Assembly (NCBI RefSeq): GCF_018420025.1
Contig: NZ_JAEDAM010000024.1
Coordinates: forward strand, 1-14,396
Direction: 5' to 3'
DNA: 14,396 bases
DNA from: Candidatus Vampirococcus lugosii
GTDB taxonomy: Bacteria > Patescibacteriota > Gracilibacteria > Absconditabacterales > Absconditicoccaceae
Shown: piece after piece, positions 1,434 to 14,396 of the stretch
Layout of the letters: each line of letters opens with the position of its first letter
Position numbering within the stretch: the stretch's first letter is position 1
Translations under genes and position numbers: made by a program
Notes under the pieces: generated by a model
What the model saw: the letters and a program-made list of their open reading frames with translations, nothing else
Told to the model about the DNA's origin: nothing
Database searches by the model: none

Positions 1434-1509
1434 CAGGGAGGCTAGGATTCGAACCTAGAGCACCAGCTTCGGAGACTAGTATGTTAAACCAGTTAGACAC
1501 CACCTCCCT
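1434..1509 (-). tRNA. tRNA-Arg, anticodon CCG (76 nt including discriminator G, no encoded CCA)
   Basis: The minus-strand sequence is AGGGAGG-TG-GTGT-CTAACTGGTTTA-ACAT-A-CTAGT-CTCCGAA-GCTGG-TGCT-CTAGG-TTCGAAT-CCTAG-CCTCCCT-G. It has a 7-bp acceptor stem, a D loop with GG, a T loop TTCGAAT, and anticodon loop C-U-CCG-A-A. The anticodon stem has two G-U pairs, so the anticodon assignment is less certain than the tRNA call itself. Confidence 0.85.
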
Positions 1510-3411: not shown

Positions 3412-4728
3412 ATGAAAATATGATTGGTATGACAGACAAATGTTGGTAAAAGTACTATTTTTAATAGATTTATATGAACATATAGAGCGATAATTACTGA
3501 TATTGCATGAACAACAAGACAAATAATTAGTGATAATTTTTATCCAAGAGATGATTTTTTATGTAAAATTTATGATAGTCCTTGACTTGCTGATTTTGAT
3601 GAAGAATTACAATATATTCAAGAAATAATTGAAGATTCTGATTTGATAATTTTTGTTATTGATTGAAAAAGATGAATAACAATGAAAGATGAAAAAATAA
3701 AAGAATTAATTATAAAAAGATGAAAACTAAATAAAAGCATTTTGGTAGTAAATAAATTGGATTCCAAAGTTAATTCTCCAGATTTAATAAATTATATTTG
3801 AGATTTTTATAGTTTTTGATTTGAAAATATATTTCCTTGTAGCTCCAAAAGTTGAGAATGATTATGAAATATTTCTGATTATATAGAAGAATATATAGAC
3901 AAAAATAATATTAGTCAATTTGAAGAAAAAGAAGAAAAAACAATAGATATAAGTTTTGTATGAAGACCTAATACTTGAAAATCAACTTTGATAAATAAAT
4001 TTGCTCAAGAAGATATATCAATTGTTAAAGATACTGAATGAACAACTTTGGATTATATACAAACTGATATAAATTTTAAAAATGAAAAATATACTCTTTA
4101 CGATACAGCATGAATAAGAAAAAAATGAAAAATATTATGATTAGAAAAAATAGCCTTTAGTAAAACAAAACAATTATTGCAATACAAAAAACCTGTAACA
4201 ATAATATTAATTGATATAGATTCTTGACTTACTCATACTGATAAAACAATAATATGACAAATAGATAAATTAAATGTACCAATTATAGTTGCATTAAATA
4301 AATCTGATTTACTTGATCAAAAAACATTAAAATTAAGAACTAAACAAATAATTGCATTGCTTTCATTTGGGAAACATATTCCTATAATTGATATTTCTGC
4401 CAAAAATTGACATAATTTGGATAAAATATTAAAATTTGCAAAAGATATTTCAAATGAATACAAAAAAGAAATAACAACTGCTCAATTAAATAAGGCTATT
4501 AATAAAGCTTGGATGACTAATCCTCCTAGATTTTCCAAAAATAAAATATGTAAAATTTATTATGCTACTCAAATAAAATCTTGACCTCCTAAATTTTTGT
4601 TTTTTATAAATAATGAACAAAAAGCAAATTTTGCATTCAAAAAATGGATAATTAATACTTTGAGAAAAAATTTTTGATTTATATGATGTCCTATAATTTT
4701 GGAATTTAGAGAAAGAGAACAAAAATAA
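3412..4728 (+). CDS. der: Ribosome-associated tandem GTPase Der/EngA (438 aa, code 25)
   Basis: Two GTPase domains are present. Domain 1 has G1 LVGQTNVGKST, G2 GTTR, G3 DSPG and G4 NKLD. Domain 2 has G1 VGRPNTGKST, G3 DTAG, G4 NKSD and SAK. The C-terminus is KH-like (YATQIKSGPPKFLFFINN..LRKNFGFIGCPIILEFRER). Several P-loop glycines are TGA. Confidence 0.95.
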
Positions 4729-4755
4729 TTTTTATTTATTTAATTTGATTTTGTT

Positions 4756-7700
4756 ATGGTTTCAAATGAAGCAAAATTATTTAGAAATTTAGAAGATAAA
4801 TTTGGTTCTGAACTGGTAAGAAAATGAGGTATATATTTTATGTATGGAAATGTTTTAGAAATTAAAATAGATGTAAAAAATATTGATTTTTGAAGTATAT
4901 CTTTTTATTGAGTTGTTGTAGGTAGTAAAAAATATAGTGTTTCATTGACATACTTATATAATTTAGATTTTAAAAATTATTCTTGTGATTGTCCAGCATT
5001 TAAAACATATTGAAGGTGTAAACATATAGTAGCTTTTATTATGTGAATAATTGATAGATTTTTGTTTGATGATAATTTTGTCTATGATAATAAACTTAAT
5101 GATGTAATAAATATTAAAGATTTTAAAAAAAATTCTTCTTTGGATATGTTGAAAACAATTGATTTTGATAAAAAAAATAATTCCAATGATGATTGGAAAG
5201 ATGAAAAATTATATAAAGTTAAAATTGAATTTGATGAAAAGTGATATTATTATAAAGATATGTTTATTTATTTACTTAAATGTAAATTGAAAAATAATTG
5301 AGTATTAAGTCCTTGAAGAAAACTTAAAAAAAATGAATTTGTAAAAGTTCCAGCAAAATTTAAATTGCTTGAATATTTTGCACAAATTGATTCTTGATAT
5401 TATAATTATAATGAAGAAAAAACATTTGATTCAAATCCAGAATTATTTTTTGATTTAGTTAAAAAATATGATAATATATATATATGAAATAAAGAGACGA
5501 TAAATGTTAATAAAAGATTATTTAATTTAAAATTTAATTTTGAAAAACTTGAAAATTGAAATATAAAAATTAACCCAGTTTTGGTATTAGATAATCTTAT
5601 ATATGATATTGATAAAGATTATCTTTATTATAGTAATAATTCTTTATTATCAGCATTAAAATTTTGAAATGAATTGATTTTTTTTAATTTGCCATTAGAT
5701 TTTAATTCTTTTAAAGAATTATTATCTAATGATATAGAGTTATCTACAGAAGAATTTGAAGAATTTAAGAAAGCTAAAAATTATAAATCTTTGATACAAT
5801 ATGCTTATGATTTAAATGGTTTGGAAAATTTTAAAAAAGAACTTCCTTATGATAATCTTGAAGTTATTATTGATAATGATTTTTCAAATGTAGAAGTAAA
5901 ACATAATGTATTTTACAAAGATGAAATTTTGGAAGAAAATGAATTTGATAATAAATATATTTTTAAAAAAGATGAACTTATTGAGAGAGATTTGGAAAAA
6001 GAAAATAATTTATATGATCAAGTTAATTGAATAAAAGTTTTGGCTGATGAAGTTGTTTGAAATACTTTTTATAAAAATTCTACAAAAAATATAGATTCTT
6101 TTTTTGATGAGATAGAAAAACAAGAAAAAAATGGTAAAAAAGTTGTTTATAAACAAAAAACTAAAAGAATATCAAGTAAAACTTTATCTGCAAAATTGGA
6201 TGTAAAATCATGAATAGACCGATTTGATGCTAGTTTAAAATTAAAAATTTGAGATAAAAAAATTAATAGTGCAAAAAAAATATTGGAATCTATAAAAAAA
6301 TGAGATAATACTGTAATACTTGATGATTGAACTGCATTTAAATTGAAAGATAATGTTAAAAAAGTTTTTAAAGAATTGGAAGAAATTGGAATTAATAATT
6401 CAAATATTGAAGATGAAACATATAAAATATGAAAATATAATATATGATTACTATGAAAAAATTCTGAAAATGATGAAAATGATAAAATTCTTGAATATGA
6501 TTTGGATCATAAATGAAAAGAATTAAAAGAAAAAATTTCTAATTTTGATTGAATATCTAATATTGAAGTGCCAAAAGAAATTATTGCTAATCTTAGAGAT
6601 TATCAAAAAAAGTGATTTCAACGGATAAATTTTCTTAAAGAATATAATTTTGGATGAATTCTTGCTGATGATATGGGACTTTGAAAAACTATACAAACTA
6701 TTTCAATGTTGCAAAGAGAATATAATAATAATATTAAAACTCCTAGTTTAATAGTTTGTCCAACTTCTCTTACATTAAATTGGGAAAGTGAAATTGATAA
6801 ATTTGCTCCAAATCTAAAAGCTCAAGTAATAGAAAATTGAAAAGAATGATTTGAAAATATTGAAAAAGATACTAATATAATTATTATTTCTTATTGAATA
6901 ATAGCAAATTTAGTTAATGATTGAAAATTAAAAAAACAAAAATTTCATTATATAGTTGTAGATGAATCACAAAATATTAAAAATCCTAATGCTATAAGAA
7001 GTAAATCTATTTATAAATTGAAATGAAAATATCGTTTAGCATTATCAGGTACTCCTATAGAAAATAATTTAACAGAACTTTGGTCAGTATTTAATTTTTT
7101 GATGCCTTGATTTTTATGAAATTTAAGTTCATTTAGTAAAAAATATAAAAATGCAAATAAAGAAGAATTAAAAATATTATCACAAAAAATTAAACCTTTT
7201 GTAATTAGAAGAACAAAAGAGGAAGTTTTGAAAGAAATTCCACCAAAAATAGAAAATATAACATATTTGAGAATGCCACAAAAACAAAAAAAATTTTATG
7301 ATGAATTAAAAGAAGCTTATAAATTACAAATTTGAAAAAAACTTGAATCTGAATGACTAAATAAAGCTCGTTTTGAAGTTTTGGATGCACTATTGAAACT
7401 TCGCCAAGCTAGTTTATTACCACAGTTAATTGAATGAAATAATGTAAAAGATTCTGCTAAACTTGATTATATTAAAGAAAATATTGAAGAAATGATACAA
7501 TCATGACATAATTTATTAATATTTTCTCAATTTACAAAATTTATATGATATATAATTCAAATTTTGAAAGAGAAAAAAATATCTTATTGCCATATTGAAT
7601 GAAAAACTAAAGCTAAAGATAGACAAAAACAAGTAGAAAAATTTAATTCATGAGAAATATCTGTATTTGTAATTAGTTTGAAAGCATGATGAACAGGGTT

Positions 7701-7956
7701 AAATTTGACTCAAGCTGATTATGTTTTACATATGGATCCATGGTGGAATTCATCCGTTGAAAAACAAGCAACTGATAGAGCTCATCGTATTTGACAACAA
7801 AAAACTGTATTTGTAAATAAATTGATTATGAAAGATAGTATAGAAGAAAAAGTTTTGAAATTACAAGAAAAAAAGAAAGATTTAATTAAAAATGTTTTTG
7901 AATGAGATTTTACTTGAAATTTAAGTGAAGATGATATTAAATATATTTTTGATTAA
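4756..7956 (+). CDS. SWIM zinc-finger / SNF2-family helicase-ATPase (1,066 aa, code 25)
   Basis: The N-terminus carries a SWIM signature, [14 protein letters not shown] (about 4984-5030, CxCx9CxH). The C-terminal half has LRDYQKKGF, ADDMGLGKT (motif I), DESQNIKN (motif II), [14 protein letters not shown] (motif III), [25 protein letters not shown] (motif V) and [11 protein letters not shown] (motif VI). The two standard-code ORFs 5062-5244 and 5674-6030 are in-frame pieces of this gene. Confidence 0.9.
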
Positions 7957-7987
7957 TTTATCAAAAATTTAGTAGATTTTTATTTAA

Positions 7988-8023
7988 TAAAACTTATACT
8001 TAAAATTACTTAGTTAAGTTTTA
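7988..8023 (+). terminator. Weak hairpin between the SNF2 gene and the kinase gene (possible terminator)
   Basis: A 9-bp stem taaaactta / taagtttta with an 18-nt loop that contains tactta twice, followed by an AT-rich tail. It has only one G-C pair. Confidence 0.2.
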
Positions 8024-8046
8024 ATTAAATAAATTTTTTATAGATT

Positions 8047-9861
8047 ATGGATATTAATGTTAATAAACAGTATTTTGAATTGATTGAAGATTTTTTTATT
8101 GTATCAAAAACAGATATTTATTGAAATATAACATATGTTAATGATAATTTTTGTAATATCTCTTGATATACAAAAGATGAATTGATCGGTAAACCTCATA
8201 ATATTGTAAGACATCCAGAAACACCAAAATATGTATTTGAAGAAATGTGGGATACTATCAAAAATAAAAAACAAATTTTTTCTTATATTATCAAAAATAA
8301 GAAAAAAAATTGAAAATGATATTGGCTAAAAAGTGTTATTAAACCTATTTTGAATGATGATTGAGATATTATAGAATTTATTTCTATTAGACAAGATGTT
8401 ACAAAAGAAATAGAATATAATAATAATCTATTTAAAACAATAGTAGAAAATATGTCAGAAAGTGTTTGGATATGAGATAAATATGAAAAAACAATTTATG
8501 CAAATCCTAATTTTTGTGATTTGTTATGATATGATGTTGAAGAGATAATTTGAAAAGAATCATATATGTTTTGGGATAATTTTAGTGCTCAAATTGTTAG
8601 AGAAAATAATAATATTAGAAAAAAATGAAAAAAATCAAAATATGAATGAAATTTAATAACAAAAAATTGAGAAAAAATACCCGTATTTCTTAGTTTAGCT
8701 CCTATGAAGGATTGATGAAGTGTTTGAATTATGACAGATTTGAGAGAATTAAAATCAGTAAAAAAACTTGCTGAATATCAAAAAGCAATAGAATGATCAA
8801 ATATATTATTAAAAATATCGCCAAATTATAATATAACATATGCAAATCAAATATTTTTTAAAGCATCAAAAATAAAAAAAGATAATATTTTAAATAAATA
8901 TTATTTTGATATATTAGATATTGATTCTCATTTAAAAAATGAAATAAAATTATCTCTTGAAAATAAAAAAGTTCGAAGATGAGAATTGAAATTAAATGTA
9001 AATGATGTTGATTATTTTTCTTGGGCTTTTACAAATATTATACCTTTATTTAGTAAAAATTGAGAACTTGAAGAATTTTTAGTTTTGAAAAATAATATTA
9101 CAAAAGAAAAACAATATGAAACAAAAATTCAAAATGATAAAAATCATATAATAAAAAAATTGGAGGAAATAAATAAAACTAAAGATGAATTTATAAATAT
9201 TGTAAGTCATGAATTAAGAACTCCTATGACTACTATCAAATGATATATATCAATGATATTGGAATGAGATGCATGAGATATTAATGATGAAGTAAAGATA
9301 TATTTAAATAAAATAATTACTAATTCTCAGAGATTGATTTATTTGATAAATGATATATTGGATGTGCAAAAACTTGAATCTGGTAAAATGAATTTTAATT
9401 TTACCAAATTTGATTTTGTAAAATTACTTGATGAAGTGTATTTTGATATGTTAAATCTTGCCAAAAAAAATAATCAAAAACTTTTATTGAATAATGATTT
9501 TAAATCATTATATATTATTTGTGATAGAAATAAACTAATACAAGTTCTTGTAAATTTGATAAATAATTCTATTAAATTTACTCCAAAATGATGAGAAATA
9601 AATATAATTTCCAAAATTAATTGAGATTTTTTGGAAATTTGTGTTGTAGATACAGGAATATGAATAAGTGAAGATGATCTAAATAAAATATTTGAAAAAT
9701 TTTGACAAGTAAAAAATTCTCTTACAAGGGATATAGAATGAACTGGTCTATGACTTTTTATAGTTAAATCTATAATAGAAAATTTAGGTTGAAAAATAAA
9801 TATAGAAAGTAAATTATGAGTTTGAACTAAATTTTATTTTTCTATACTTATTAATAATTAA
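8047..9861 (+). CDS. Soluble sensor histidine kinase with three PAS-like domains, HisKA and HATPase_c (604 aa, code 25)
   Basis: PAS1 reads GKPHNIVRHPETPKYVFEEMWDTIKNKK..KNGKGYWLKSVIKPILNDDGDIIEFISIRQDVT. Two further PAS-like blocks follow. The H-box is FINIVSHELRTPMTTIKGY, the N-box LVNLINNSIKFT, G1 VVDTGIGIS and G2 EGTGLGLFIVK. I saw no hydrophobic membrane-spanning stretch. The standard-code ORF 9334-9591 is an in-frame piece. Confidence 0.9.
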
Positions 9862-9894
9862 CTCAAAAAAATTTATTTTATAAAAAATATATAA

Positions 9895-10374
9895 ATGAAA
9901 AAAACAATATTAATTGTAGAAGATAATAAAGAATTGTCTGAAATGTTCAAGATTAAATTTGAAAAATGATGATTTAATGTTTTTATTTCTGATAATTGAT
10001 TTGATTCATTATGACTTGCTATAGAAAAAGAACCTGATCTAATCTTATTGGATATAATGATGCCTGATATGGATTGATTTGAAACATTAAAAGTATTAAA
10101 AGAACAGACATCTTTAAAAACTAAAATTTTTATATTTTCAAATTTAAAGAGTGATGATCATATAAAAAAAGCAAAAAAATTATGAGCTGATGATTATCTT
10201 GTAAAAGCAGATTATACACCAAAAGAAGTTCTTGATAAAGTGATATTATCAATATGACCGGCTGATGATAAAAAATCTATTTTTTGTTCAGATGCAGATA
10301 AAACTTTTGTTTCACAATGTCCACATTGTTGAGAAAAATTTAAATTAGATATTAAAATATCAAAAGATGAATAA
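9895..10374 (+). CDS. Single-domain response regulator (receiver) with a short Cys/His C-terminal tail (159 aa, code 25)
   Basis: ILIVEDN provides the acidic pair and LILLDIMMPDMDGFE the phospho-acceptor Asp. IFIFSN and DYLVKAD (conserved Lys) are also present. The tail is FCSDADKTFVSQCPHCGEKFKLDIKI. All eight Gly codons in this gene are TGA and none is GGN. Confidence 0.9.
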
Positions 10375-13300
10375 TATAAGAGAATATGATGAGTTTGAAT
10401 GAAAAAATAATGATGATGAAGAAGTATTTAATTCTAATCTTGCAGATGCTTTAAGTGATACATTTTTGATAAATGAAAAAAATTCTAATTTATTATCAAA
10501 AGAAAAATTAGAAAATATAAGACAAAATTTGTTGCAAACTACGGAAAAACTTTATGAACAAAATAATTCAAATAAACCAATACTTATAGTAAGTGATTGA
10601 ACATATTTGAGTATTAAAGAAAAAGTTTTGAAAGAAATTTATTGAGAAAAATTATATCAAAAATATACACAAGTAGTAAATATTAAATATAATGATTGAT
10701 GATTAGATATAGAAGATTTGGATAATTATTTAAAATCAAATATTCATTCAAATAGTTTAATATTATTATGATGAAGTATCAGTGATATTGTTGATATAAA
10801 TCCTTTTATTTCCAATAGTTTCTTTTTTTCTTTTTTGAAAGATATTATAGAAAATACATGAGATATATCAAAAAATAATTTTTTATTGTGAATATGTTAT
10901 TGACATCAATTAATATCACATATTTCTTGAAATGAGATGGAAAAATGTGGTAGCGATTTTTCTATCAAAACTTGTCAATTTGAAAAAGAAATTCCTGAAT
11001 TTTATAAAAAATGTTTTGTATGATTAAATAATGAAAATCAAAATAATTGATTTAATTCTGTTTTTACTAGATCTTGGAAAGTTTGAAAAAATTATAATGA
11101 TGATTTTGTTCCATTAATAGCTGATCAAAATTGATTTTGAAATAAAAGTGAAACATTTTTGAGTATACAATTTCATCCTGAAGTTCCTATTAAAGATATT
11201 GATAATATAAATAAACTTAAAAATGAATTGTCAAAATTATGAGTTGATATAGATTCGCTTTCTTTTGATGAACAAAAATTATCTGAAAGTATAGATAAAC
11301 ATTTTTTTATTCCAGTATTTGATAATATAATATCAAAAATTTTAACAAGATTTAATAAAGAAAAATCTGAATATTCTGAGATGAATTTGAATTTAATTAA
11401 TGTAAATAAACTTAGATCTACAAGATTAGTGTGAGATTTTTTATCAGAATCTTATCTTGATTTTAATTTTCCCAAAAGAGAAGATTATTTTAATTATCTT
11501 TATAATAATTGATTACTTTATTTAAATTCAAATTTTGATCGAAAAGTTGATAGGTGAGTAAAAGAAGTATCTAATACTTTATGATTAAAATCTACTTCAA
11601 AAATTATATCCGAATTGCAAAAATATAAAAAAGAAATTGATAAAAATGCTGTATTTACTGTAAGAGATATGTGAGCAGGAGATGGAACTTTTTTGGAAGA
11701 AAGTTATAAAGATCTTTCATGAAAAGATATACTTTTTTCTTGAGTATGAGATAAAATATATATAGATTTGTACAAATGAATAAAAAATTCAAAATATTCT
11801 TGGCAAATACCAGATGATATATTGAAAATATTTGTAAAAAAATTTATACAAATAAAAAATGATATAGAAAAACAATCTTGAAAAAAAGAAATAAAAGAAA
11901 TATTGCCAAAAATACTTTCTTCAATAAATATTTCTAAATGAGATGTTGTTTTGGATGATTCTATGTTTGCAGAAAGTACTAGTATGTTTGATTATGTTTG
12001 ATGAAACTCTTTGAGTGAAGAATCTTTAAAATTTTTGGAATCTAGTGATTGAAAAAATAAAATTAATAATTTAAAAAATGATATACAATTAAATTTTTTA
12101 TGATTTGTAAAATGATATTTTGAAAGAATTTTTGTGTCAGATTTTAATTCTTATTTTGATAATCTTGAAGAAATTAGATTTAAGTATTCTAGTGATTTAA
12201 AAAAATGTGATTTAAATTTATCAGTTAGATGAACATCTCATCTAAATAATAAAGATTATTATAATTTAATGTATGATCTTATAGATAAATGATTAAATGA
12301 TTGATGAATTATTATAGATGATTGAATTATTAGATCATATACATATGAAAATAGATTTTTGGAATTTTTGAAATTACAAGATATTTTTTCTGATACAATA
12401 AAAATATTTATTATTTCAGATTTGAAAGATGATATAAAATCTGTAATTATTCAAAAAAAACCTTTTAATGATGAATTAGATTTATCAAATCATGTAATGG
12501 AATGATTTTTTGTAGAAAGTATAGAAACTTTTGATAATAATGATATTATTGTTAATTCTTATGTAAGAAATTTAGTTCATAACTATATATATTCTTTATC
12601 TTTTTGAAAAGATATTTATAAAAAAATAGATAATAAATTATCTTTAAATATAAATCATATAATAAATTTGATTAATAATGATAATTATGAAGAAATATAT
12701 TTTAAAATTGATGAAATTATAGATGATTTATGAAAAGAATATTTGGAAAATATTTGTAGAAATAGTTCTATAAAAAATTTTAAATCATTAAAATTGCGAT
12801 TGGAAAATACTATTCGTTTTAAAAAAGAAATATCTTCTATTGTATCAAAAATATTAAAGCAAGATAATAATGATTATGATTATCTTATTTTATATGAAAG
12901 TGAAAAACATAAAAATAATATTGAATTACATCTTAATATTTTTGATGAATTAATTAAAGAACAAGAAGAAAAATCTAATGTAAATAAAATAAATATAAAG
13001 CCATTTCAAACATTATTAAATTTTTTTGATAGTATGAATGAAGTATCTGATCCTAAAGTTTTGGAAGAATTGTCTTCTTTATCTCCTTATATTTTACCAC
13101 TTTTGGAAAGTAAAGATTTATTGCTTGAAACTTTATGATTAGATAAGTTTTTGGATAAAAAATTTGAATCTGAAAAAGATGATTTAGATAAAAGTTTAGA
13201 AAATATTTTTTGGAAAAATGTAAAAATATTAGTAATAGATAATATACCTTCTATGAAAAAACTTTTGGATGTTGTTTTTGTTTCTGATTTATGAGTAAAT

Positions 13301-13597
13301 AGAGATAATATTACTATGCTATCTTCTTGTGAAGATTGATTATTATCTTTATCAAAATGTGATTTTGATGTTGTAATAGTTCAAAAAGATTTAGATATTA
13401 ATTCAAATTTTTCTATTTTGAATTATATTAATTCTATATGAACAAATTTATTGTATATTTGATGAGATGATAAAAATATTGATGTTGGTAATAATCTTTC
13501 TTATAAAGAACTTGTTCATCCATTTACAAAAAAAGAATTACAAGAATCTATAGCTTCATTTGATTGACTTGTTGATAAGACAATATTAGATATATAA
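10367..13597 (+). CDS. Unassigned 1,076-aa multidomain protein: GATase1-like domain, Rossmann/SAM-methyltransferase-like region, C-terminal receiver-like domain (code 25)
   Basis: ATG at 10367 is the first start after an in-frame TAG at 10346-10348, and the stop TAA is at 13595-13597. The GATase1 signature is LILLGGSISD, FLLGICYGHQLISH (Cys codon 10895-10897) and LSIQFHPEV (His 11174, Glu 11180). The Rossmann motif is FTVRDMGAGDGTF (11666-11686), with a later LNDGGIIIDDG. The C-terminus reads KILVIDN..FDVVIVQKDLD..LVHPFTKKELQESI. The standard-code ORF 12743-13138 is an in-frame piece. The CDS call is strong, but the function is unknown. Confidence 0.85.
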
Positions 13598-13633
13598 TTT
13601 AAATATATATTATTAAAAATTAAAAACAATATT

Positions 13634-13690
13634 ATTACCTACAGAATTAACAAAATTCACTTTTTTCTCTAATTTAGGTGCAGAAGATTA
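13634..13690 (+). repeat. 57-nt dispersed repeat, copy B (inverted relative to 1587-1643)
   Basis: attacctacagaattaacaaaattcacttttttctctaatttaggtgcagaagatta is 52/57 identical to the reverse complement of 1587-1643. It lies between the convergent ends of the large CDS and the transposase remnant. Confidence 0.9.
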
Positions 13691-13724
13691 GAATTTTATA
13701 ACTTTGTATTGACAATATAAAGTT

Positions 13725-14147
13725 TTACTTACAATATCTTTGATTTCTATTTCGTGAAAATTTTCAATTATGTAATATATATTCAACTACTTCTAAACAG
13801 GCATACATATAATAATTATTTAGTCTTTCAACTTCACTTCTTAAATGTATTTTCTCTAAATTATATTCTTGTTTTAAATATTTATATGTTTCTTCTATTA
13901 ACCATCTATAACTATATGCTTTTATTACTTCTATAGCTTCTTTTGCATTTCATACTTTTTTGTTTGTAAGAAATATTCTTTGTCATTTATTATTTTTTAT
14001 CACCACCAAATAATATTTTCTCTTACTGTTTGGGTCAAATATCTTTACCATTCAATAGTAAAGTTTTCCTCTCATTTTCTTGTCTCCTTTCAGACTTATC
14101 TCTACTTCCTTTTTCAAGTTTCTCAAATAACTAATTGAGTTCTCTAT
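13725..14147 (-). pseudogene. C-terminal remnant (140 codons) of an IS4-type DDE transposase
   Basis: The minus-strand frame reads ..IKAYSYRWLIEETYKYLKQEYNLEKIHL.., which carries the IS4-family Y-(2)-R-(3)-E-(6)-K signature (about 13874-13918). It ends at a TAA (13727-13725) and is closed upstream by a TAG at 14150-14148. Only about 130 nt remain before the terminal inverted repeat, so the N-terminal two-thirds, including the DD part of the DDE triad, is absent. It contains in-frame TGA codons. Confidence 0.7.
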
Positions 14148-14279
14148 CTATACTGTTTTTCACTTAATTTTTACATATCTATTTTTTTCATACATACTAT
14201 AAAGTATGTTTTTAGTTTTGACAAAATATCAAACATTTTTTTCTCATCATATTATCTATCAAATATAAAACATATATTA

Positions 14280-14396
14280 ACCTCATCTTTGTAGAACAAA
14301 ATTTCTAAATCCTTGATTTAGACAAGGATTTGCGAGAAAATAAAAATAGATTTGTGTACTACACAAATTTTATAATTTTATTTTAAATAATTTAAA
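14280..14396. repeat. Right copy of the ~116-nt inverted repeat (partner at 9-124)
   Basis: This is the reverse complement of 9-124 with 3 differences. It contains the palindrome at 14350-14368 and the hairpin at 14307-14331. It runs to the last base of the window and may extend beyond it. Confidence 0.9.

Follow-up and report, generated by a model that had tools for sequence, protein, structure and literature searches.

The window analysed here is the entire 14,396-bp contig of Candidatus Vampirococcus lugosii that is shown above, and its plus strand carries, at 10367..13597, a gene for a 1,076-residue protein in which a class-I glutamine amidotransferase (GATase) domain is followed by a very divergent central domain of the class-I S-adenosylmethionine (SAM) methyltransferase fold and by a pseudo-receiver. 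We consider it fairly probable that this protein serves a dedicated two-component pathway as its enzymatic partner, and most probably as its output. We arrived at this reading because the family of the protein is co-inherited with one orthologous histidine kinase, because receivers are fused to its members at either end, and because no DNA-binding domain is detectable in the regulators. An earlier reading of the DNA from sequence only, referred to below as the sequence-only reading, had taken the protein for a signal-controlled enzyme with a domain combination matching no described family. The first idea is backed by the conserved kinase neighbourhood; as to the second, no curated model covers the combination and relatives are named 'hypothetical'.

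The gene is open only when TGA is read as glycine (code 25). Its frame of 1,076 codons contains 48 in-frame TGA and a single TAA, the terminal one, and TGA serves as 48 of its 52 glycine codons. Under the bacterial code (table 11) the longest open reading frame (ORF) across this stretch is 131 aa, and the whole window, with a GC content of 20%, contains just four ORFs of at least 80 aa. The code 25 reading recovers all the glycines in the motifs cited by the sequence-only reading and yields an orderly gene array over the whole window, and all of its proteins were translated in this way. At the TGA columns of standard-code homologs, glycine fills 109 of the 266 aligned cells. Tryptophan is outside the eight commonest residues at these columns, on which ground code 4 (TGA as tryptophan) was dismissed. 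The family profiles and AlphaFold alignments used database translations with TGA as tryptophan, which adds noise at glycine columns. Over its full length the translation shows 100% identity to the NCBI entry 'glutamine amidotransferase-related protein [Candidatus Vampirococcus lugosii]', which is carried on this contig. UGA-to-Gly recoding was reported in the Vampirococcus genome paper, where amidotransferases, methyltransferases and two-component systems are not mentioned (PMC8080830). Our literature searches found no mention of the protein, its family or its domain combination.

An ORF artefact, caused by a wrong genetic code or by fusion of separate genes, would be in keeping with the lack of any long ORF in the region under table 11. 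This explanation has next to no probability and is refuted by three observations: the 48 TGAs fall at columns occupied by glycine in standard-code homologs, the same full-length architecture occurs in independent assemblies, and the GATase and central domains share one ORF at about 25 further loci, both being present in every complete ORF there.

The N-terminal module (residues ~45-300, 10499..11266) is a class-I, or triad, GATase domain and, as predicted from its sequence, a catalytically competent Cys-His-Glu hydrolase. Pfam PF00117 matches residues 161-276 with 34.4 bits against a cut-off of 22.8 (E = 2.2e-8), and the isolated N-terminal third scores 37.3 bits. The full-length AlphaFold model has a predicted local distance difference test (pLDDT) of 80.9 and a predicted template modelling score (pTM) of 0.71, with residues ~45-300 confident. 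A Foldseek search of this model against the PDB returned 47 matches at E < 1e-3, each with the class-I GATase fold at a probability of 1.00, including the glutaminase domains of GMP synthetase, the Arabidopsis γ-glutamyl peptidase GGP1, TM1158, PabA/TrpG and the GATase-like homoserine acyltransferases. The elbow G-x-C-x-G-x-Q is present as GIC177YGHQ and the His-x-Glu pair as QFH270PE272, which places the catalytic triad at Cys177 (10895-10897), His270 (11174-11176) and Glu272 (11180-11182). In the model, Cys177 is located between a strand (172-176) and a helix (178-186) in the manner of a nucleophile elbow. Among the 25 GATase-bearing relatives, Cys is kept in 24, His in 24 and Glu in all 25, and the 'GGS' loop is kept too. 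Both the GATase call of the sequence-only reading and its impression of an intact triad are therefore supported, by Pfam, fold and conservation in 24/25 relatives.

NCBIfam matches to GuaA-N, CarA and 'PRK07053/PRK09065' amidotransferases were weak and fell far under every equivalog cut-off. The GuaA-type or 'GMP synthase-like' class-I GATases (PF00117; among them the stand-alone TM1158 and PRK07053/PRK09065, and plant GGP1) share with the target the fold, the elbow and the His-x-Glu pair; against solved GATase domains the Foldseek E-values are 3e-7 to 1e-5 and the template modelling (TM) scores normalised to the target 0.55-0.69, at 12-23% identity. The GATase of the target is fused to a methyltransferase-fold domain, and no partner synthase domain of known type was detected in the target by Pfam or NCBIfam.

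We conclude from modelling that the central domain (residues ~370-745, 11474..12601) adopts a Rossmann (methyltransferase) fold that would bind SAM, and that it forms a new, Pfam-less family within this fold. AlphaFold on residues 360-750, with the family alignment, gave a pLDDT of 91.9 and a pTM of 0.91. The predicted elements are β1 (residues 430-435), αA (441-449), β2 (455-461, with Asp462 at the strand end), a helical insertion of ~120 residues with small hairpins (~466-585), β3 (588-590), αC (593-603), β4 (614-619), αD (628-642), β5 (643-651), αE (664-673), β6 (678-684) and β7 (690-697). This order, with seven strands and a β6-β7 hairpin, matches class-I SAM methyltransferases. The best 50 Foldseek matches in the PDB are all SAM methyltransferases, though weak ones (best E 3e-3, TM ~0.4), and the neighbours include the plantazolicin methyltransferase BpumL, the methyltransferase domains of OvoA/OvoM, fibrillarin, KijD1, CmoA, COMT and spermidine synthase. 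The earlier methyltransferase-like call thus stands on strand order and on 50 of 50 structural neighbours, with weak scores and no hidden Markov model (HMM) match for the target.

Motif conservation is in line with this assignment. Nearly all of about 50 relatives keep the GxGxG of motif I (DMGAGDG, 11666-11686; DMG436AG438DG440) and the Asp that closes β2 (GVGD462). The family is marked most strongly by [RK]-x-T-[SC]-H, which comes immediately after β4, is near-invariant and reads RGTSH in the target (12227-12241), followed 24-25 residues on by [DE]-[DN]-G-x3-S-Y-x4-R after β5 (RSYT..R, 12332-12355). A conserved D-[WR]-x-V-x-R element marks the N-terminal part of the domain. In the methyltransferase fold, the post-β4 and post-β5 positions line the active site. 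Distant members give split sub-threshold matches to Methyltransf_11/12/23/25/31 (17-25 bits against cut-offs of 21-30), with motif I near the domain start and profile positions 53-97 about 250 residues on. That separation confirms the earlier remark that the motif spacing is far longer than in canonical enzymes. Methyltransf_11/12/23/25-type class-I SAM methyltransferases share the seven-strand Rossmann-like order, the β6-β7 hairpin, the GxGxG and the acidic residue of β2 with the target, which differs from them by the ~120-residue β2-β3 insertion and by D-[WR]-x-V-x-R, R-x-T-S-H and S-Y-T-x3-R.

All the motifs named in the sequence-only reading were located: LILLGGSISD at residues 131-140, GICYGHQ at 175-181, QFHPE at 268-272, DMGAGDGTF at 434-442, ILFSGVGDK at 455-463 and LNDGGIIIDDG at 643-653, and the gap of ~160 residues between the GATase and methyltransferase-like motifs holds. 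The sole PDB sequence matches of the family profiles for the central domain, ACC deaminase (E 1.2) and STING (E ~0.5-1), were taken as chance. The STING ligand-binding domains align around GxxDRxY, at central-domain profile positions ~102-229, and at E 0.5-1 the alignment is not significant.

The C-terminal domain (residues 942-1076, 13190..13594) is, by sequence comparison, receiver-related but a pseudo-receiver. A profile built from the target and its two orthologs matches CheY structures over the full domain (E 1.8e-7), and the model follows a (βα)5-like order in which the α4 region is poorly defined. Pfam Response_reg (PF00072) left the receiver copy of the target unmatched and gave 19.7 and 22.0 bits in the two orthologs, against a cut-off of 30.2. 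In the alignment, D12/D13 of CheY correspond to Asp958-Asn959, the phospho-acceptor D57 to Gln1006 (13382-13384; Gln and Ser in the two orthologs), T87 to Gly1032 and K109 to His1051. Because Gln1006 occupies the phospho-acceptor position, we regard the domain as a pseudo-receiver, and the fused receiver is probably not itself phosphorylated. The earlier receiver-like call was therefore correct as to homology, but the Asp that would accept the phosphoryl group is replaced by Gln.

The modules are connected by three segments. Two long helices (residues 310-355, 11294..11431; pLDDT mostly 80-98) join the GATase to the central domain, and a helical bundle (residues ~749-870, 12611..12976; pLDDT ~85-90 dropping to ~60), with just 28-31% identity between close orthologs, follows it. 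A probable flexible linker (residues ~890-940, 13034..13186; pLDDT <50) precedes the receiver fold. The 'low-complexity linkers' of the sequence-only reading are not borne out for the most part, since 310-355 and 749-870 are predicted as ordered helices and low confidence is confined to residues 1-36, ~890-940 and parts of the C-terminus.

Word-index homolog searches recovered just 4 to 8 proteins; it was an exhaustive profile search over 1.84 billion representatives that revealed the family, with 71 relatives (24 at E < 1e-30) and ~70 clusters. An alignment search with P0032/P0052 found no relative in GTDB representatives. A hand-built degenerate DNA pattern for the family signature, scanned over 185,579 GTDB species genomes, occurred at 25 places, and it matched the window once with 0 matches expected. 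All 25 loci belong to Patescibacteria metagenome-assembled genomes (MAGs) labelled Gracilibacteria, Absconditabacteria, Peribacteria or Patescibacteria group, or to unnamed bacteria, with a GC content of 22-56%, and every named or genome-assigned member is from Patescibacteria; the family as a whole is conserved over a GC range of 22-66%. Named members are a 'hypothetical protein' of Absconditabacteria or Gracilibacteria, apart from one 'GMP synthase-like glutamine amidotransferase'. PADLOC gave no defence-system match, and Pfam, NCBIfam and PADLOC are without a model for the central domain. The family is uncharacterised and its architecture is not a described family. No curated family covers the pairing, in line with the sequence-only reading, but the target is not a one-off: it is one of ~70 clusters, most of them without a receiver.

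One MAG (L028) carries two tandem paralogs (3440-6244 and 6264-8000), each with a GATase and a central domain. Low-GC MAGs labelled 'Candidatus Peribacteria' also bear the gene, at L001/L038 (CAZACQ010000012.1) and other loci, and L001 needs 46 TGA-to-Gly reassignments. Peribacteria are not known to depart from the standard code, and for these two reasons the automated Peribacteria label of the low-GC MAGs is doubtful.

A typical member has 850-1,140 residues, with the GATase before the central domain, and most have no receiver. The receiver-less members (including P0007-P0032 and L015-L039) end in an extreme C-terminal tail, W-[FML]-N-x4-5-R-x-[YN], which is missing in the five receiver-bearing members. 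Tail and receiver may be alternative coupling devices. In the Vampirococcus clade, an 'FWKN' is found just ahead of the first strand of the receiver. Other members keep a canonical receiver: P0006 has one at its C-terminus (Pfam E 5.9e-14), P0005 also keeps the acceptor Asp, and P0060 combines an N-terminal canonical receiver (E 4.8e-12) with the central domain and has no GATase. In P0051, P0058, P0061 and P0077-80, which form a clade of their own, the methyltransferase fold comes first and the GATase second. The two predicted catalytic domains are fused in the complete motif-scan ORFs and, in reverse order, in this clade, and we count the fusion as support for their functional coupling. P0004 (L006 513-3902), 25% identical to the target, no longer has the Cys and His of the GATase triad (GAGSQ, NFNPEF) and keeps the central GxGxG and RSTSH; it has a long, dissimilar helical C-terminus.

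A fusion of this kind could also denote a new type of glutamine-dependent amidotransferase, in which ammonia from the GATase is channelled to the methyltransferase-fold domain as acceptor, or synthase, domain. Ammonia-producing GATases have the same elbow, G-I-C-x-G-x-Q, and the same H-P-E pair, the top structural matches are the glutaminase domains of GMP synthetase and PabA/TrpG, the two domains are obligately fused across most of the family and stay fused under permuted order, and the full-length pTM of 0.71 suggests a defined inter-domain arrangement. We nevertheless hold this explanation to be unlikely. Pfam and NCBIfam detected no ATP-binding or known synthase domain, some members have no GATase (P0060, P0064, P0053 and others) or a dead triad (P0004), and the conserved GxGxG with the β2 Asp is more indicative of a nucleotide or SAM cofactor than of an activated acceptor. 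Nor, to our knowledge, is there any amidotransferase with a methyltransferase-fold acceptor.

The proposed role as enzymatic partner of a two-component pathway is backed by the gene neighbourhood. As the sequence-only reading had noted, the gene comes directly after a kinase and regulator pair on the plus strand, the kinase at 8047..9861 and the stand-alone regulator at 9895..10374, and the stop codon of the regulator overlaps the ATG of the target by 8 nt. Pfam was used to assign the domains of these and the other neighbouring genes. The kinase is a cytoplasmic PAS-PAS-HisKA-HATPase histidine kinase (HisKA 1.4e-17, HATPase_c 3.1e-27, H-box 'SHELRTP'; PDB sequence matches 3ewk 4e-30 and 8dik 9e-28), in which Pfam identified no methylation helices like those of methyl-accepting chemotaxis proteins (MCPs). 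Its first PAS (8047-8410) is of the Aer/MmoS/NifL type, with a PHNIVRHPETP motif (MmoS 4e-30, Aer 9e-28, NifL 2e-14). By analogy with these very close relatives we infer that this PAS binds flavin and would use it to sense redox or energy state. Vampirococcus is described as a fermentative epibiotic predator. The stand-alone regulator has a canonical receiver (Pfam Response_reg E 1.8e-21) with acceptor Asp, Ser and Lys all in place in the alignment, and a CxxC zinc-ribbon-like C-terminal tail of ~40 residues (…QCPHCGEKF…) with weak Pfam matches to the Cys-rich CPXG/CpXC families. No DNA-binding domain was detectable in either regulator of the operon.

The trio of kinase, regulator and enzyme is preserved in two orthologous loci despite differing other flanks. 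At the motif-scan loci a kinase is adjacent in 11 of 25, nine of which also have a receiver, and many of the others are truncated. The arrangement varies: the enzyme with its canonical receiver precedes the kinase in L007 (P0006), the kinase is followed by the enzyme 6 nt downstream in L014 (P0005) and overlaps the enzyme in L008 (P0014), and the order is enzyme, kinase and receiver in L012 (P0060). In the high-GC, standard-code loci L010 and L013 there is a divergent PAS kinase and a convergent single-domain receiver, and in L011 (permuted P0051) a PAS-PAS protein adjoins. The neighbouring kinases are orthologous and share a near-identical PAS segment, …FKTIVENMSESVWIGD…TIYANPNFC…GGxVGIMTDLRE. 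The PAS common to all of them is the second PAS of the Vampirococcus kinase; an Aer-type PAS as the family-wide sensor was dismissed, being confined to Vampirococcus-clade kinases. P0005 and P0006, in which the receiver Asp is kept, have an adjacent kinase and no separate regulator gene, and in the three members with a degenerate receiver the regulator gene sits between kinase and enzyme. This distribution fits a scenario in which the stand-alone regulator took over as phospho-acceptor.

The target can be compared with response regulators that have an enzymatic output (CheB, and the receiver-GGDEF proteins PleD and WspR) and with pseudo-receivers in which the acceptor Asp is missing; the shared feature is a receiver fold fused to catalytic domains and encoded beside a histidine kinase. 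As an output, the pair of GATase and methyltransferase fold was in none of the searched libraries. Unlike phosphorylatable response regulators, the target has Gln1006, Gly and His at the positions of D57, T87 and K109, and a separate canonical regulator is encoded upstream.

The co-inheritance of the family with one orthologous PAS kinase is tight enough to raise a further possibility, that of a protein-modifying 'adaptation' enzyme which, by the logic of CheD/CheB plus CheR, deamidates or de-esterifies and methylates the neighbouring kinase or regulator. The fusion of a receiver to a hydrolase is as in CheB, and the Trp tail of receiver-less relatives, W-[FML]-N-x4-5-R-x-Y, could be a docking peptide. 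The likeness to CheR/CheB/CheD is one of logic alone (amide or ester hydrolase, SAM methyltransferase, receiver and sensory kinase pathway): no homology to any of the three was found, the hydrolase fold is another one, the locus has no MCP, and a specific kinship was dismissed on the lack of any sequence or structural signal. The best 50 structural neighbours of the central domain are mostly small-molecule or RNA methyltransferases, with CheR absent, and the post-β4 region does not have (D/N)PP(Y/F), the motif of glutamine and amino-group N-methyltransferases. The lack of MCP-like methylation helices in the kinase counts in the same direction, and we know of no class-I GATase that acts on protein glutamine. 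Altogether we think an adaptation enzyme quite improbable.

Since adjacency has no direction, the domains could instead be an input, binding glutamine and SAM as metabolic read-outs to modulate the kinase, with catalysis secondary. Many members have no receiver and could not take phosphoryl groups directly, and one has a dead triad yet an intact central domain. However, the full triad is kept in 24 of 25 members and residues at the catalytic positions of the methyltransferase fold are conserved, both beyond the needs of ligand binding, and the canonical receivers fused to some members argue for signal reception. An input role is, in our judgement, very unlikely.

Several points weigh against an enzymatic partner with the proposed domains. 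For the central domain of the target there was no Foldseek match at or below E 1e-3 and no Pfam or NCBIfam match even at E <= 10, and the family profiles matched no methyltransferase among PDB sequences, so that the methyltransferase assignment leans on predicted structure and sub-threshold HMM matches. Since P0004 is without the triad and a distant clade is without any GATase, the hydrolase is dispensable for part of the family. The poorly predicted α4 makes a classical α4-β5-α5 contact between receivers doubtful. As to gene context, no kinase was found within the fetched flank of L009/L024, L020, L023, L034 and L039, the correlation between regulator gene and degenerate receiver rests on about two independent events, and gene adjacency cannot separate an output from an input or a kinase modifier.

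From the observed gene, code, motif conservation and neighbourhood, and the computed domains, folds, family and taxonomy of matches, we infer the signalling direction, docking mechanism, flavin cofactor and all chemistry of the following working model, in which the protein is the enzymatic partner of the pathway. The Vampirococcus kinase would sense redox or energy state through a flavin in its extra PAS and phosphorylate the stand-alone regulator encoded between kinase and enzyme. The phosphoryl signal would thus reside on this regulator and not on the fused pseudo-receiver, and the phosphorylated regulator would switch the enzyme by protein-protein contact with the pseudo-receiver or the enzyme. 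The enzyme would act as a hydrolase on glutamine or a γ-glutamyl compound and perform a SAM-dependent transfer on the same substrate or pathway. A small molecule is the more likely substrate, because of the nearest structural and HMM neighbours. A wider proposal, which we put forward only tentatively and think rather unlikely as a whole, is a new signalling enzyme in which the GATase and SAM-methyltransferase fold make up a new amidotransferase or two-step modifier, the catalytic arm of a PAS-kinase pathway in Gracilibacteria/Absconditabacteria that, for example, makes or destroys a small-molecule signal or modifies a target governing the host-dependent or predatory lifestyle of bacteria with such reduced genomes.

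The remaining genes of the window are thyA (minus strand), a tRNA-Arg (CCG) at 1434-1509 (minus strand; ARAGORN and Rfam, the latter just over the gathering score), pyruvate kinase and the Der/EngA GTPase (both plus strand), and a 1,066-aa SNF2-family helicase with an N-terminal SWIM zinc finger at 4756-7956 (plus strand), directly upstream of the kinase. Pfam identified a DDE transposase fragment at 13725-14075 (minus strand); this ORF (116 aa from Met) matches DDE_Tnp_1 in its middle only, at profile positions 123-187 of 200, and is probably a transposase remnant. The contig ends (9-127 and 14277-14395) form a 119-nt inverted repeat, 88% complementary and near-identical over ~125 nt, which includes a short hairpin, CCTTGTCTAAATCAAGG. 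A break of the contig at copies of a repeated element is probable, and the transposase fragment adjoins the right end. A second inverted pair of 75 nt, 84% complementary, occurs at 1587-1661, in the thyA/pyk intergenic region, and at 13616-13690, starting 19 nt past the target stop, and looks like a dispersed intergenic repeat. A scan of 7900-14396 found no classical terminators, and a promoter scan was uninformative at 20% GC, with counts equal to those of shuffled sequence.

Absconditabacteria and Gracilibacteria have small genomes. In these groups an enzyme of ~900-1,100 residues is conserved, usually beside one orthologous PAS kinase and often with a single-domain regulator. The family appears to be a lineage-typical signalling module, and its effector is probably an enzyme, because neither regulator of the operon has a detectable DNA-binding domain. 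The domains themselves are of known kinds; the novelty lies in the pairing of GATase with methyltransferase fold, which occurs in both orders and was absent from the libraries searched, in the divergent family of this fold and in the dedicated signalling context. The analysis defines, at the level of predicted fold, a new methyltransferase-fold family with diagnostic motifs, and it provides a natural example of a fused receiver that would have decayed to a pseudo-receiver in loci that also encode a separate regulator. Roughly half of the proteins of Vampirococcus have neither a COG class nor a conserved domain (PMC8080830). If the substrate were identified, a conserved 'hypothetical' protein from uncultured bacteria would gain a function, and it could become clear which processes these epibionts regulate according to the redox or energy state that the kinase is proposed to sense.

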